This document shows positions 13,360 to 51,205 of a DNA stretch of 64,000 bases, one piece after another. The notes under the pieces are model-generated. The model ran no database searches and was not told where the DNA came from. It saw only the letters and a program-made list of their open reading frames with translations. Origin of the DNA: an uncultured bacterium (GTDB lineage Bacteria > Fidelibacterota > Marinisomatia > Marinisomatales > UBA1611); NCBI GenBank assembly GCA_943788175.1, contig CALSPG010000003.1, forward strand, positions 83,088-147,087, in the 5' to 3' direction. A program made the position numbers and the translations under genes. The first letter of the stretch is position 1; each line of letters begins with the position of its first letter.

Positions 13360-15450
13360 TTGAAGAGCAATGATTTAAATAGTTTTAGGAATATCGGCAT
13401 TATGGCTCATATAGATGCTGGAAAAACCACCCTTACTGAAAGAATTTTGTATTACACTGGTGTTACGCACCGTATCGGTGAAGTTCACGATGGTGCTGCA
13501 ACAATGGATTGGATGGAGCAGGAGCAAGAAAGAGGTATTACCATTACTTCTGCTGCGACTACATGTAACTGGGATGATCATAGGATAAATATTATTGATA
13601 CGCCAGGGCACGTCGATTTCACTGTAGAGGTTGAGAGGTCCTTAAGAGTTTTGGATAGTGCTGTTGCAGTGTTCTGTGCTGTTGGCGGTGTTGAGCCTCA
13701 GAGTGAGACAGTATGGAGGCAGGCTGATAAATATGATGTCCCAAGAATTGCTTTTGTTAATAAAATGGATAGAGTAGGCGCAGATTTCTTCAATGTTATG
13801 GAAATGGTTAAGGATAGGCTTGGAGCGAATCCTCTTCCGGTTGTTATTCCAATTGGTACTGGTGAGACCTTTACCGGTATTATTGATCTTATTTCTATGA
13901 AAGCTATTTTGTACAACGAATCTACGATGGGTTCTAGATTTGAAGAAGCTGATATACCTTCTGATATGGTTGAGGTTGCAGATAAATGGAGAAAGCATTT
14001 GATTGAGGAAACGGCCTCTTATGATGAAAATCTCTTAGAAAAGTTCGTTTCTGATGAAGATATTTCTGCTGATGAGTTAAAGGCAGCGATAAGAAAGGGC
14101 TGTTTAGATAATACTTTTATCCCGATGTTTTGTGGTTCTGCTTTTAAGAATAAGGGAGTTCAAAGACTTCTAGATGCTGTAGTTGACTTCTTACCTTCTC
14201 CTGTTGATATTGGTGAAGTTGTAGGTACCGACCCTAGGGATTCTGACCTTGAATTGAAGAGGCAGCCTGATGTAGATGCTCCCTTTAGTGCATTGGCCTT
14301 TAAAATAATGACTGATCCTTATGTTGGCAAATTAACCTACATGCGTGTTTATTCAGGTAGCTTAGATGCGGGTTCTTATGTCTATAATGCTAATAATGGT
14401 AAAAAAGAAAGAATTAGTAGGGTGCTTTTAATGCATTCAAATAAAAGAGAAGACCGTGACGGGGTTGTTGCTGGAGAGATAGTAGCTGCCGTCGGTTTAA
14501 AAAATGTAAAAACCGGTAATACTCTATGTAATCAATCTGATCAGATTGTTCTAGAGTCAATGGATTTTCCAGAGCCTGTTGTTGCTGTTTCTGTCGAGCC
14601 TGTTAGTAAGGCTGATCAAGATTCACTGTCAAAATCTTTGGCTAAATTGGGTGAAGAGGATCCCACCTTTAGAGTTTCAACTGATGAGGAAACTGGGCAA
14701 ACTATTATAGCTGGTATGGGTGAGCTTCATCTTGAGATTTTGGTTGATAGATTAAAAAGAGAATTTAAGGTTAAGGCTAACATTGGTAAGCCTATCGTAG
14801 CTTACAGAGAGTCTATTACTGAGGCTATTAGTGATGTCGAAACAAAATTTGTCCGCCAGTCTGGTGGTAAGGGTCAATATGGTCATGTCGTTATTAACGT
14901 GGAGCCTAACGAACCTGGTAAAGGGTATCATTTTGAAAATAAAATTACGGGTGGTGTTATTCCTCGAGAATATATTCCCTCAGTTGATAAAGGTATGCAA
15001 GAGGCGCTGAAAAATGGTGTTATTGCTGGATATCCTATTGAAGATATTAGAGTTGAGCTCATATTTGGTTCTTATCATGATGTAGACTCTTCGGAAATGG
15101 CATTTAAAATTGCCGGTTCTATGGCAATTCAATCAGCTTGTAAAAAAGCTAGTCCTAAGTTAATGGAACCAATTATGGCTGTAGAGGTAATCACGCCAGA
15201 TGAGTACTTAGGAGATGTTATGGGAGATATTAGTTCTAGGCGCGGTAAAATTGATGGTATGAGCCAAAGAAATGAGGCTCAGGTAATTAAAGCTAATGTT
15301 CCATTGAGTAATATGTTTGGTTATGTAACTGATTTGAGATCTGTTACTCAAGGTAGAGCGGTCTTTCACATGCAGTTTGCGCACTACAGTATTGTGCCTT
15401 CTTCTGTAGAAGCTGAAATTATGGAAAGAGTTCATGGCAAAGCCGTTTGA
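13360..15450 (+). CDS. fusA: Elongation factor G (TTG start)
   Basis: [33 protein letters not shown]. Confidence 0.99.
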
Positions 15451-21917: not shown

Positions 21918-22229
21918 ATGTTGATTAAAAAAGGTATGAAAGTCCGCGTTATCAGTGGTGCTCATAAAGGTTCAGAGGGTAAAGTTTTATTTACCTCTCC
22001 CAAAAAACAAAGAATTATCGTTGAAGGTGTTAATTTTATCAAAAAATCAACTAGGCCGTCTCAAGAAAATCCAAATGGTGGATTAGTGGAAAAAGAGGCT
22101 GCCCTGCACGTATCCAATGTTATGGTTGTTCAAGGGGGTACGGTTTCTAGACTGGGTTATAAATTTTTAGATGATGGTTCTAAAGTTAGGGTCATTAAAA
22201 AAACTAATGAAGAATCTGAGATACAATGA
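21918..22229 (+). CDS. rplX: 50S ribosomal protein L24
   Basis: KOW VISG..KG, VEGVN, EAALHVSNV. Confidence 0.97.
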   Translation: MLIKKGMKVRVISGAHKGSEGKVLFTSPKKQRIIVEGVNFIKKSTRPSQENPNGGLVEKEAALHVSNVMVVQGGTVSRLGYKFLDDGSKVRVIKKTNEESEIQ

Positions 22230-47344: not shown

Positions 47345-49702
47345 TTACTGAATATCCCCATTAGGGTCTGTTTTTAAATGTAAGATTTTACTTATTCCAT
47401 TGAAGATAGTTTCCCCAGTAACTATATAACCGTTATCTTTCGTTTGATTAATACTTTTAAAGGTGTCTATGCTTTCATCACCATACAGTTTTTCCCAAAT
47501 TTGATTACCCTGAGCATCATAACAAGCCAACCAACCTTGATAATTATTGTTGTCTAGACTTTTACCAACAATAATATAATTACCCATGTGATTTTCAATC
47601 ATATCTAATGCAAAATTATCGCCAGGTATTAATGTTAAAAAGTTTTGTTCACCATTAGTGTTTGTATTAATTATCCAAGAATTACCATTTTCTTGGTTAT
47701 TATTTTCAGACGAATATCCACAAATAGTATAGCTGCCATCAGATGAATGAATTAATCTTTTTGGATAATCATATGTGTCCAAATTCCAAGTTTTTGTCCA
47801 TACCGTATCACCATTGCTAGAAATATTGGTGTCGAATTGTGATAACAAAATATTTGATGGAGCCAAAGAAGAGGATTGAGCTAATGATGCAAGAATTATA
47901 AAACCATTGTCTACTTTAATTATAGATTTTCCACTTTCTATAGTTCTTTGTGAAGATGGAGCAATTGAAATACTATACTGATTGTCGATATTACCTAATT
48001 CATTAATTTCTAAAATTAATATATCAGGATGTTGTGCATGATATTGCCCAATGATAATATAACCATTTTCAGATGACAATATTATGTCATCAACTCTATC
48101 AAGACCATACGCAACATTCTCTCCAGCTGAATCATACCCAATGATTGAATTCCATAGTTGAGTACCATCTTGCATGGTCTTTGTTATTCTTATATCACTA
48201 TCTTGATTGTTGTTAACAATATTTGATACAAAAACATATCCATTATTATCTTGTGTCTCAATTAATTTTACAGGTGTCTCGTCTTGGCTATAATTATAAG
48301 AGGAAGATGAGGTTACAATTCCATACCTGTTAACACTTGTCAAAATGACATCACTATTATTCTTTGCAATGATTCTATAATCTTCAGTAGTTGTTTGGAT
48401 GCCGTAGAAGCCTGCAATTGGTTCAGCATCAGAACCATAACTTTGTAAAAATGTAAAGTATTTTGGTGTAGCTGAGTGCATATTGCTAAATACCTCATAT
48501 CCCCAATCATCAATTATCGAAACAACAAAGTAATAGGTCGTCTCATAATCATTTTCAATAGAGAAATAGCTTGTATCTTCACTACTATACGAAGTGTAAA
48601 TATCTACTTTATCACTCATGCTAGCATCTAGAGATCTGTAAAGTTTATAGCTATTAAAATCTGATGATTGATAACCTGACCATTTTATTGTGAGCTCATT
48701 ACCAAAAGAGTCGATCGAGTCCAATGAAACTGCTTGTGGTGCAGGTCTAACAGTATTTGACATAAAACCGCCTTTCGTACTCTGATTTAGAGTGTCATAA
48801 ACGATTATTCTAAAATAATTACTTAAATGTGGATCAAAGTCATCGATAGAATAACTAGCTTCAGATTTAATCATGACACTATCAATAAGAGTATTATTTG
48901 AGGTATCATTAATAGCAGAATATAGTTCATATTTTAAAAAATCTGAATCCGGTGATTCATTCCAAGATACATGCATCAATGCTTCATCATATGTTATTGA
49001 TGTGATATTGATTGGTAATGGTTTTGGATCTAAAGAAGATATGAAAACATTACTTTTTGAGGAATAATTAAACGAGTCTGAAACAGTTATATAAAAATAG
49101 TTTAGAATCAAAGGATTTACATCTTCTAAAAAATAAGTTATACTTTTTACATCGTTGGAACTAAAGATAAGTGAATAGTTATTTTCGTTTTCTAATGTTG
49201 AATGATAAAGGTCATATTGATAAAAATCTGTAGCATTTGATTCTTCCCAAGAAATATCAAAACCTGCATTATTAAAAACTACAGATTCAATTTCAATTGT
49301 ATCTGGAACAGATAAAGTATTATCAATGGTATAGTCTATTGGGGGACTCTCAGTACAATTATCATCACAATCGCAAATGCTTACTGATAATGAGACTGGT
49401 CCGTCAGGAAGCTCATTTGTATTCAAGCTTATTTTAACTGGCTCATTGTTGATATTTCCTAATATCTCGCTTAATGGTATATCTATTTTGAGATCATTAA
49501 TATTGATTTCAACGCCACATATACCATCTGGGTCACTAGCATCAATACCTAATGTTACAATTTCGTTGCATGTCGCCCCATCCTGGGGGAAAGTTATTAC
49601 TCAGTAACCTGGCTTATCTTCAACGCGCCATTTACAAGAATGCAAGAATGTTGTAGCGAGTATTAATAAACTTAGTTTAATTATTTGAATTTTTAACATC
49701 AT
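47345..49702 (-). CDS. Predicted 785-aa lipoprotein (Ig-like, 3 FN3-like, beta-propeller) with in-frame TGA at codon 34 (49601-49603); Sec candidate or point error
   Basis: ATG 49702 gives MMLKIQIIKLSLLILATTFLHSC (lipobox-like) KWRVEDKPGY*VITFPQDGATC..., in frame with the 693-aa track ORF and with no other stop. Confidence 0.8.
49573..49600 (-). promoter_or_regulatory. Candidate bacterial SECIS hairpin
   Basis: mRNA UGA-GUAAUAACUUUC-CCCCA-GGA-UGGGG: 5-bp GC-rich stem with a G-starting loop 17 nt after UGA. Confidence 0.4.
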
Positions 49703-49707
49703 ACTAT

Positions 49708-51108
49708 TTATTTAAATATTTTATTCACTTGGAAACCAAATCGTAATTTTTGATCATTATCTAAAATACCAATATCCTCTGCAAGTGCTGTTCTATTTAG
49801 ATGATATAAATTTGAAACAGATAAATCAATTTCTATTGAATTGATAGAATACTGAATTCCCGTTTTAAAGCCAGTTTTAACTGCAGATGAAATTTCATTT
49901 TGTGTTATTTGGTTCGATAAATTAGCATAAAACTGAACATGATTTTTATAAAACCAATGCAACCCTGATTGGGCAAACCAAACATCCCAGGGGTAGCCTT
50001 TAGGCTTTAATTTTGTATCAACTAGATTTATATGAATGAAAGTAGGAGCTAATGAAAATATTATGTTTTGTTTGAGTTTATATTCAAAAATAATTTGATT
50101 TAAAAAACTGAGTTTATCGTAGTCATCAAAAATTACAGGTTTGCCAGGATGCGTGCTTATTATGGATTCATAAACAATATTTATCGGATAATTTAAATTT
50201 TTAATTAATCTGTTTAAATAATTTGTTCTAAAAGAAAAATCAGATGTGTTTAAAAAATTGGTTTTTGAAATTTCAATAGTTAAAAAGTCTTTGATACCAT
50301 ACCCTAGGGTAAGTCTAGATTGCTGACTAATTGTTGAACCGAATCTATTTTCTAGTTGAAGTTTAATGGCACCCTCGGGCAAAAGTAGTTTGGAATTTGT
50401 ATCAAGCTGTCGAATCTTTTTATTATCACCGGTCCTCTTTTTTGTCCTTTTTACTTTATATAAAGCTGATATATTGAAAGTGTTATTTTTATAATTAAGA
50501 GAGTCCATCAATGTTTTTTTCACATCTGCCATCCCTAAAAAGCAAGAGGCTCTGAATCCAAAATTATTATTTAGCATATATTCTGCGCCAATGTGGAGAC
50601 CAACATCTACATCAAAATCTTTAGGCTTAAGCTTAAGTTCATCTGACTGGCTGCTGTTATAATCTGTAAACTTTAACTTTGTAAGTGAAATTCCTCCAAG
50701 GGAGCTACCAAATTGTAAACCCATAAAAGAATTAATTTTACTACTGTGTGATATTGGGTAGTAAATATGAGTAGATAAGTAATTAAAAACCTCATAGCCG
50801 TCAATATTAATTTTGTAATCTACACCACCAATATTAACTAGTGTATTGTCCTCTAATTTAGAACCTCTTTGAAGGTAACTAACGCCAGCAATAAATCGAC
50901 TGATTGGATATTCAAAGCCAATGTTAAATCCATTTCGGGAGCTTATATTAATACGATTATTAATGGTATTATCATTGTATTGAATTTTTGAAGAATTAAC
51001 CCCACCAAAAATTGTCAATTTGCTTTGTGCGTAAATAGAGGATACTAAAAGAATTGTTATAATATTTGATTTTACTAGACTGAAAAAAAGGGTGAATAGT
51101 TTTATCAT
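49708..51108 (-). CDS. Outer-membrane protein: PorT/OMP_b-brl_2-like barrel fused to a DUF5777-like barrel
   Basis: Signal peptide; GG.N.S, GFNIG, Y.QRG, KNNTFNIS; then ENRFG, RL.L.YGI.D.L.I, L.PTFIH.NLV, LRFGFQV. Confidence 0.65.
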   Translation of the reverse strand: MIKLFTLFFSLVKSNIITILLVSSIYAQSKLTIFGGVNSSKIQYNDNTINNRINISSRNGFNIGFEYPISRFIAGVSYLQRGSKLEDNTLVNIGGVDYKINIDGYEVFNYLSTHIYYPISHSSKINSFMGLQFGSSLGGISLTKLKFTDYNSSQSDELKLKPKDFDVDVGLHIGAEYMLNNNFGFRASCFLGMADVKKTLMDSLNYKNNTFNISALYKVKRTKKRTGDNKKIRQLDTNSKLLLPEGAIKLQLENRFGSTISQQSRLTLGYGIKDFLTIEISKTNFLNTSDFSFRTNYLNRLIKNLNYPINIVYESIISTHPGKPVIFDDYDKLSFLNQIIFEYKLKQNIIFSLAPTFIHINLVDTKLKPKGYPWDVWFAQSGLHWFYKNHVQFYANLSNQITQNEISSAVKTGFKTGIQYSINSIEIDLSVSNLYHLNRTALAEDIGILDNDQKLRFGFQVNKIFK

Positions 51109-51131
51109 AGTTTTTAGTAAGATTGTTAATG

Positions 51132-51205
51132 TAGCGGAGGAGGGATTCGAACCCCCGACACCCGGATTATGATTCCGATGCTCTAACCAACTGAGCTACT
51201 CCGCC
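51132..51205 (-). tRNA. tRNA-Met (CAT), elongator type; 3' CCA not encoded
   Basis: Reverse complement GGCGGAGTAGCTCAGTTGGTTAGAGCATCGGAATCATAATCCGGGTGTCGGGGGTTCGAATCCCTCCTCCGCTA; lacks the initiator C1:A72 pair and GGG/CCC stem. Confidence 0.93.

Follow-up and report, generated by a model that had tools for sequence, protein, structure and literature searches.

A probable selenocysteine-containing lipoprotein of marine Marinimicrobia, encoded with a minimal SECIS-like hairpin

The selenocysteine (Sec) insertion sequence (SECIS) of the Escherichia coli fdhF gene is a hairpin located within the coding region, just 3' of the UGA codon. A similar element marks a gene in a 64,000-nucleotide (nt) stretch of DNA (the window, to which all plain coordinates refer) from an uncultured bacterium of the Fidelibacterota (assembly GCA_943788175.1, contig CALSPG010000003.1). 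The gene resides at 47345-49702 on the minus strand and is interrupted by one in-frame TGA. On the evidence of sequence comparison, UGA codon 34 very probably encodes Sec, with the hairpin as a minimal SECIS, and the product would be a lipoprotein of the cell envelope.

Criteria for bacterial SECIS elements (bSECIS) are given in the Fig. 2 legend of a review of May 2026 (PMC13188914) and include, in that legend, a loop of 3–9 nt, an upper stem of 4–16 bp, a G in the first two loop positions, a distance of 16–37 nt from the UGA, and a minimum free energy (MFE) at or below -7.5 kcal/mol. When set beside the fdhF element and the consensus of this legend, the candidate is alike in its intragenic position 3' of the UGA, in the 16–17 nt spacing, and in an MFE not exceeding -7.5 kcal/mol; its hairpin is considerably shorter, the core comprising four G-C pairs and one A-U pair. 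Table 1 of the same review lists 119 prokaryotic selenoprotein families or subfamilies, among which neither a lipoprotein with Big_7, immunoglobulin (Ig), FN3 or propeller domains nor a YUV motif occurs. While the mechanism of recoding would be an ordinary one, it is unusual in its protein context, and in that no cysteine (Cys) form was found.

The nearest functional precedent is, by analogy, MccSep/ExtKL of Geobacter sulfurreducens (bioRxiv 10.1101/2025.11.18.688581). In the part of that preprint considered here MccSep is an exported protein with Sec on an Ig-like beta-sandwich, as predicted for the candidate, and acts on a chalcogen (polysulfide). It differs in having five CxxCH heme motifs, in being a periplasmic homotetramer, and in the location of Sec, which is found in a C-terminal Ig-like domain and points into the heme site. 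The translation of the candidate is devoid of CxxCH motifs; a lipid anchor is predicted, and Sec occupies the N-terminal edge of its Ig domain.

The source genome measures 2.27 Mb, in 12 contigs, and has a G+C content of 33.4%. The features on which the reading of UGA-34 depends are the following.

47345..49702, minus strand: coding sequence of the putative Sec-lipoprotein, 785 codons and a TAA stop, with UGA-34 taken as Sec (translated with TGA=U)
49634..49702, minus strand: candidate lipoprotein signal peptide, ending in the invariant lipobox-like Cys23 (TGT 49636-49634)
49604..49633, minus strand: linker KWRVEDKPGY between the lipid-anchor Cys and Sec, conserved, in one frame with the downstream domain
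49601..49603, minus strand: in-frame UGA, codon 34, the probable Sec codon, TGA in 51/51 loci and 32/32 distinct sequences
49573..49590, minus strand: SECIS-like hairpin, assigned from predicted structures, invariant CCC/GGG codons and the published bSECIS criteria
49328..49600, minus strand: Cys-rich Ig-like domain (Big_7, Pfam PF17957), immediately 3' of Sec, with invariant C45, C62, C110, C112 and C116

The reading frame starts at ATG 49702-49700, 5 nt past the TAA (49710-49708) of the upstream outer-membrane protein (OMP) gene, and ends at TAA 47347-47345; TGA 49603-49601 is the sole interruption. The N-terminus reads MMLKIQIIKLSLLILATTFLHS-C-KWRVEDKPGY-[TGA]-VITFPQDGATCNE... The first in-frame ATG, GTG or TTG after the TGA is TTG 49426, codon 93, within the Ig domain, and searches for open reading frames (ORFs) with translation table 11 return only a 693-aa ORF from this TTG, which begins inside the domain. 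The start, the leader with its lipobox-like Cys, the single TGA at codon 34 and the five Cys of the Ig domain had all been described in a first-pass annotation of the window, and were found in place. The same annotation had proposed a check of the reads at 49601-49603: the codon is TGA, free of variants, in contigs of two DNA runs (X3, X6) and two RNA-library runs (X8, X17), the runs being independent and RNA-library cover alone being no proof of transcription.

Orthologs were sought in six frames in 60 relatives, and in the genome itself. Full-length orthologs with exactly one in-frame TGA were identified in seven of the nine genomes of the genus, at 55–100% identity (55–89% for orthologs over residues 1–785). 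An eighth genome (G005) contains the C-terminal part only, at a contig end, and from G008, the ninth (81% complete), the six-frame search recovered no ortholog. In a second genus, both genomes carry the TGA (63% and 47% identity), and the TGA column is identical in all nine species of the two genera. Scans of metagenomes added 34 loci and scans of genome contigs 8, and TGA occupies the column in 42/42. The total is 51/51 orthologous loci, spanning 43–100% protein identity. Because the 8 genome-contig loci, judging from their leader sequences, apparently stem from the same genomes as the relatives, the 32 distinct 132-nt sequences are a sounder count than the 51 loci. By either count TGT, TGC and TGG are absent from the column; the scan pattern PGYC[VI]ITF could catch TGT and TGC forms, and none appeared. 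Cys homologs, which had been expected at the outset, were not found, and no sense codon of any kind was met at this site.

Residues preceding the TGA (C, W, R, D, P, G, Y) and following it are invariant in the 32 sequences, and their codons vary synonymously (CGT/CGC/CGA, GAT/GAC, CCT/CCA/CCC, GGT/GGC/GGA), which argues for translation in a single frame across the TGA. At codon 36 Ile is found throughout, encoded by ATT, ATA or ATC. The Tyr33 codon immediately before the UGA (49604-49606) is TAC in 32/32 distinct sequences; genome-wide, TAC accounts for 23.1% and TAT for 77% of Tyr codons. The invariant TAC may be a context requirement for Sec insertion.

Twelve ENA metagenome gene calls (P0002-P0013) show W at the TGA position. 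The N-terminus of one of them, P0003, is identical to that of locus L070, whose DNA reads TGA, and W in these records most likely results from gene calling with genetic code 4 on short A+T-rich contigs. Code-4 gene calls disguise selenoprotein genes as Trp-containing proteins.

The hairpin, CCCCA-GGA-UGGGG, is at 49588-49576, and 17 nt separate the UGA from the loop, as first described. Counting from the U of the UGA, the core stem is formed by C16-C19 and G25-G28 (49588-49585 and 49579-49576) plus the A20-U24 pair, and the apical loop by G21, G22 and A23 (49583-49581). Beneath the core stem C29 is bulged, C15 pairs with G30, and U14 with A31. The stem starts 12 nt after the UGA, or 11 nt if the lower C15-G30 pair beneath the bulge is counted. 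In one 79-nt contig of RNA-library run X8 a base is missing at position 49575, in the 3' flank of the hairpin (depth 6 of 17.1), probably an assembly error or a rare variant.

Five of the six hairpin codons (TTC CCC CAG GAT GGG GCG) end in G or C, as the first-pass annotation had remarked. Pro39 is CCC and Gly42 is GGG in 32/32 distinct sequences, Gln40 is CAG in 31/31 and Asp41 is GAT in 31/31; genome-wide, CCC makes up 8.8% of Pro, GGG 12.8% of Gly, and CAG 24.8% of Gln codons. Among 44 codons examined, the invariant residues with degenerate codons that use one codon only are Tyr33, Pro39 and Gly42. All others use at least two, and other invariant Pro and Gly columns use three or four. Changes in the hairpin are few. 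In L056 and L059, GAT is replaced by GTT (D to V), which alters a loop base and spares the adjoining C-G pairs; in L079, where CTG stands in place of CAG (Q to L), it is the closing A-U pair that is altered. TTT...GAT codons in the divergent clade give a U15-A29 pair, and the bulge is gone. Conservation of the hairpin among TGA-bearing homologs, proposed beforehand as a check, is borne out through invariant rare codons, the CCCC/GGGG hairpin being retained in 31/32 distinct sequences. As judged from these codon patterns, the hairpin is under selection at the nucleotide level.

TGA is a normal stop in this organism. The 1401 ORFs of at least 200 aa of the genome end in TAA (848), TAG (301) or TGA (252), and within the window a 696-aa ORF (13360-15450) and the ORF at 21918-22229 terminate in TGA, in agreement with the first reading of the window. 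The Sec machinery is complete: selA, selB and selD, the latter with one in-frame TGA, score above curated cut-offs, and a tRNA-Sec(UCA), present in one copy (57.3 bits, over the cut-off), is the only tRNA reading UGA. The anticodon of tRNA-Trp is CCA, and the tRNA set of the genome includes no suppressor tRNA for UGA. selA is above the cut-off in 56/61 relatives, including eight of the nine TGA-bearing genomes, the ninth being 64% complete. Sec use seems to be a trait of the whole order, and since selA is nearly universal in it, the co-occurrence of selA and the TGA gene does not discriminate.

Other selenoprotein genes of the genome were sought by a coding-potential scan across in-frame TGAs, and confirmed via Pfam or NCBIfam. 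Seven were identified, which encode two AhpC/TSA peroxiredoxins (T-P-G-U), three thioredoxin (Trx)-like proteins (UxxC) with a type IX secretion system (T9SS) sorting domain, SelD, and a UshA-like protein (PCGU). In 4/7, nt 21–23 exactly (GUU, GUU, GGC, UGC) form the loop of a short G+C hairpin, as GGA does in the candidate. With the latter included, selenoprotein genes are at least eight, and the genome is above the six-gene threshold that denotes a 'selenoprotein-rich' genome (PMC5029168). The selD gene (L096, C7:396487-397527) features two successive hairpins past the UGA, with loops at nt 21–23 (UGC) and nt 37–39 (GUU).

The UshA-like protein (NCBIfam NF041198; L097, C1:245841-247013) resembles the candidate, encoded by the same genome, in its lipoprotein-type leader and in Sec near the mature N-terminus; the loop of its hairpin, GGUCU at nt 22–26, likewise contains G and lies at nearly the same distance from the UGA. 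It differs in having a metallophosphoesterase/5'-nucleotidase-like fold and a CxU motif, in being listed in Table 1 of PMC13188914, and in having an NCBIfam model. The Trx-like selenoproteins, all encoded outside the window, are L093 (C1:333769-334605), L094 (C8:48125-48898) and L095 (C6:71052-72536), with motifs UGTC, UGTC and WUPSC, respectively. All three have signal peptides and C-terminal Por_Secre_tail (T9SS) domains, and the organism appears, from these domains, to secrete selenoproteins to the surface or the medium. They are exported, as is predicted for the candidate, and have short G+C hairpins like it, with loops at nt 21–23 in L093 and L095. They differ in the Trx/AhpC-TSA fold, the UxxC redox motif, and T9SS export in place of a lipid anchor; the candidate has its Sec at the first strand of the Ig domain, surrounded by the residues Y-U-V-I-T and lacking an xxC partner.

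Several observations weigh against Sec insertion at this site. According to reviews, nearly all selenoproteins have a Cys homolog, and no Cys-containing homolog of the candidate was found among 15 of 30 matched proteins, the 42 added loci, and 14 of 150 listed representatives. Among the 15 matched proteins inspected, the twelve with complete N-termini carry W at the site, and three start downstream of the TGA. For the remaining 15, query coverage does not exceed 74%, and they too appear truncated. A search of 1.84 billion representatives with an N-terminal profile yielded, at E <= 0.001, 2841 matches. Giant Big_7 proteins with many repeats make up most of the 150 listed, and the 14 inspected comprise 13 generic Big_7 repeats and one ortholog fragment (P0043) that starts after the TGA. 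The representatives were clustered at 50% identity, and a Cys form inside the ortholog cluster could stay hidden.

Other points of this kind concern the RNA. RNAalifold detects no compensatory covariation (0/16 predicted pairs), as the stem never varies. Folding energies are no better than those of shuffled sequences (z = 0.01 for 75 nt, z = -0.56 for 45 nt), and no Rfam family matched positions 49300-49750 at E <= 10. The divergent contig L079 keeps the TGA with a weakened hairpin (C16·U28 and U20·U24 mismatches; MFE -6.0 kcal/mol). The bSECIS criteria of the review legend, scored with an own implementation, hold for the candidate (-9.4 kcal/mol) and for 5/7 reference selenoprotein genes of the genome, as well as for 10/252 true TGA stops and 778/15000 random TGA triplets; taken alone, they let through 5.2% of random TGAs in the genome. 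A strict rule (at least 4 bp including at least 3 G-C pairs, a loop of 3–5 nt starting at nt 20–22, G in the first two loop positions) selects 156/93696 TGA triplets (0.17%) and 0/252 true TGA stops; it was devised after the hairpins, that of the candidate included, had been seen, and its figures should be read as a measure of specificity, not as an unbiased test. If an open, coding-like frame is also required on both sides of the TGA, six sites of the genome pass, five known selenoprotein genes and the candidate; the fit of the hairpin to published criteria and strict rule alike speaks for Sec insertion.

On the protein side, the AlphaFold2 model of the 120-residue N-terminal module, built with Cys for Sec from a 30-row alignment, is poor, with a mean predicted local distance difference test (pLDDT) of 62.7 and values below 50 at fragment residues 1–6 and 18–24, around the linker and C45. 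The Sec region being poorly modelled, the structure offers no rationale for Sec.

Against these points stand the conserved TGA, the constrained hairpin and the complete machinery, which support the selenoprotein reading of the first-pass annotation. Each of four contrary outcomes (a sense codon in the reads, a non-Cys residue at this column in orthologs, missing sel genes, a hairpin not conserved beside the TGA) failed to occur. With UGA in the ribosomal A site, the short G+C hairpin would be bound by SelB·GTP·Sec-tRNA(Sec), and Sec would be inserted in place of termination. The predicted product, a pre-lipoprotein of 785 residues, would comprise, in this order, the signal peptide, Cys23, a 10-residue linker, Sec34, the Big_7 Ig domain, three repeats of FN3-like type, and a region resembling a beta-propeller. 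It would be exported via the Sec translocon and lipidated at Cys23, lspA being present in the genome, and would presumably reside at the outer membrane beside the DUF5777 barrel encoded 5 nt upstream.

Read-through independent of Sec, in which a near-cognate tRNA (Trp or Cys) decodes the UGA at low efficiency, the hairpin acts as a pausing or read-through stimulator, and the lipoprotein is kept low or regulated, would fit the missing Cys homolog and the stem without covariation. The invariant TAC could similarly suggest a context effect, and gene callers gave W in ENA records, most likely through code 4; the W of P0003, however, stands where the DNA reads TGA. Spacing and G-containing loop of the hairpin match those of the proven-family selenoprotein genes of the same genome, the complete Sec machinery serves at least seven other genes, no suppressor tRNA exists, and the site lies among five invariant Cys, a usual setting for Sec. 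These features make read-through improbable.

Even less probable is the synthesis of two products, a 33-residue lipopeptide ending at the UGA, and a leaderless Ig/FN3/propeller protein initiated at the non-canonical ATA, ATT or ATC of codon 36. Ortholog records in GenBank, annotated as "hypothetical protein" or "Ig-like domain-containing protein", do start just after the TGA (e.g. MTFPQDG...), and codon 36 is invariably an Ile codon of these types. Yet both parts are in one frame, gapless, in 51/51 loci, homologs join a lipoprotein leader directly to an Ig domain, and the downstream protein would have no export signal, despite its Cys-rich Ig and FN3 modules; moreover, the rare CCC and GGG codons 13–25 nt downstream would be left unexplained. 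An artefact or decay (sequencing or assembly error, a recent nonsense mutation making a pseudogene, or genome-wide reassignment of TGA), part of which the first-pass annotation had kept as a real alternative, is favored only by the general expectation that a stop within a frame mostly reflects an error or a pseudogene, and is rejected with near certainty, given TGA throughout the orthologs down to 43% identity, clean and concordant independent runs, purifying selection on both sides of the TGA, the 252 TGA stops, and the CCA anticodon of tRNA-Trp.

In the selenoprotein reading, Sec34 is part of a distinctive N-terminal module. The Big_7 match (PF17957) spans residues 35–107, with an E value of 7.7e-7 and 30.1 bits against a gathering cut-off of 24.1. 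Sec34, C45, C62, C110, C112, C116 and the linker, KWRVEDQPGY in the alignments, are invariant. Wherever the leader is visible, it consists of a hydrophobic stretch followed by [S/N]-C, the Cys being invariant; the lipobox-like site has S or N at -1, and is atypical at -2 (H, F, Q, Y). The domain past Sec aligns with the PPTVxITSP...GxVxV pattern of thousands of Big_7 domains of surface proteins. The 13 generic Big_7 stretches differ from it, as Val or Thr occupies the Sec column, and the five Cys and the linker are missing. In distant Sec-less homologs (G028, G022) the lipoprotein leader is joined straight to an ordinary Ig domain, and linker, Sec and Cys cluster are all missing. Since distant homologs lack all of them, Sec34, the five Cys and the linker are viewed as a joint innovation of the subfamily. 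That Sec34 serves to make the Cys count even, as first suggested, is unproven.

The remainder of the protein, and the gene preceding it, are organized as follows.

48413..49300, minus strand: three FN3-like repeats, residues ~135–430, a pattern read from the translation
47348..48415, minus strand: C-terminal beta-propeller-like domain, residues 430–785, assigned by cluster similarity, as a lead only
49708..51108, minus strand: outer-membrane beta-barrel gene (OMP_b-brl + DUF5777; Pfam DUF5777 E 6.5e-14), the conserved upstream partner

The FN3-like pattern W..S...DF..Y.LY ... Y.F.V occurs three times in the translation. Pfam detects no FN3 repeat in the candidate protein itself (P0001) at E <= 0.01; homolog P0009 carries a precomputed PF00041 match. 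The propeller-like region has no Pfam match. Its nearest Atlas clusters score 0.95–0.97, and SBBP (PF06739) is found on 46% of the members of one of them, PQQ_2 on 20% of the members of another.

The family is, within the searches made on sequence data, restricted to one group of marine Marinimicrobia (SAR406, Fidelibacterota). In marine metagenomes it forms 90%-identity clusters of 84–245 members, and all or part of the stretch was found in runs of 16 studies. NCBIfam release 20, in which many selenoprotein families are represented by models, gives 0 families at E <= 0.01 for the candidate protein. In the main texts of the literature on selenoproteins, including those of Marinimicrobia (SAR406, Fidelibacterota) and those with Ig-like domains, no description of the family was found. 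The seven new families of the GOS paper and the nine of deep-Sep (PMC12013277), as presented in the sections of these papers considered here, differ from the candidate, and were all found with Cys homologs. The selenoprotein family is apparently undescribed, with no Cys counterpart found.

The barrel gene is directly upstream of the lipoprotein gene in 48/51 loci. In the three remaining ones, the 5' part of the lipoprotein gene is missing (L026), or the flank is too short (L068, L071). The closest paralogue in the genome (C1:64613-66256) is not beside a DUF5777 barrel, the only other weak barrel match being at C5:511022, and the pairing is accordingly specific to this locus. The barrel evolves faster than the Sec-Ig module, with identities between clades of 28–55% and 46–98%, respectively. 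No paper on DUF5777 was found by name search. A prediction of the complex of the barrel with Ig residues 35–140 scored 0.35, against 0.00 for the best of three controls, and lends weak support to an interaction. The mark used is reached by 58/80 solved complexes and 2/110 mismatched pairs; with scores of 0.60 or less, just 7/80 solved complexes reach it, as do both mismatches that pass. Runs agree in at least 69% of contacts; the pLDDT of the partner is at least 45, which leaves its fold uncertain.

A redox-active or thiophilic centre that works with the barrel could possibly be formed by Sec34 together with the five Cys that are invariant in the membrane-proximal Ig domain, a speculative assignment that is rather doubtful as it stands. 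Such a centre may hold a selenylsulfide/disulfide, a soft metal, or a sulfane-sulfur or selenium ligand. A narrower proposal, that in this family without Cys counterparts the Sec34/Cys site captures a thiophilic ligand (a soft trace metal, polysulfide, sulfane-sulfur or selenium species) and passes it to the dedicated DUF5777 barrel, must be regarded as unlikely. If true, it would denote the first selenium-dependent outer-membrane receptor/uptake module, in one of the most abundant uncultured lineages of the ocean.

Searches for bacterial selenoproteins rely on Cys/Sec pairs, and this creates a blind spot. In the part of its paper considered here, deep-Sep is stated by its authors to possibly miss selenoproteins devoid of Cys homologs (PMC12013277). 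The candidate family, for which no Cys homolog was found, is a case in point. It would place Sec in an Ig-fold, non-thioredoxin protein of the cell envelope with a predicted lipid anchor. The very small, defined SECIS (four G-C pairs and an A-U pair, with a GGA loop) could be used for work on SelB binding, and barrel and putative Sec-lipoprotein make up a defined two-gene module, the ligand of which can be searched for.

At the locus, gdh is followed by the genes for tRNA-Met, the barrel and the putative Sec-lipoprotein, and a ROK kinase gene is oriented convergently. In the divergent clade the N-terminal OMP_b-brl half of the barrel is missing or unalignable, and only residues 230–465 align, at 28–31% identity. 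The tRNA-Met gene, at 51131-51205, is located just upstream of the barrel gene.

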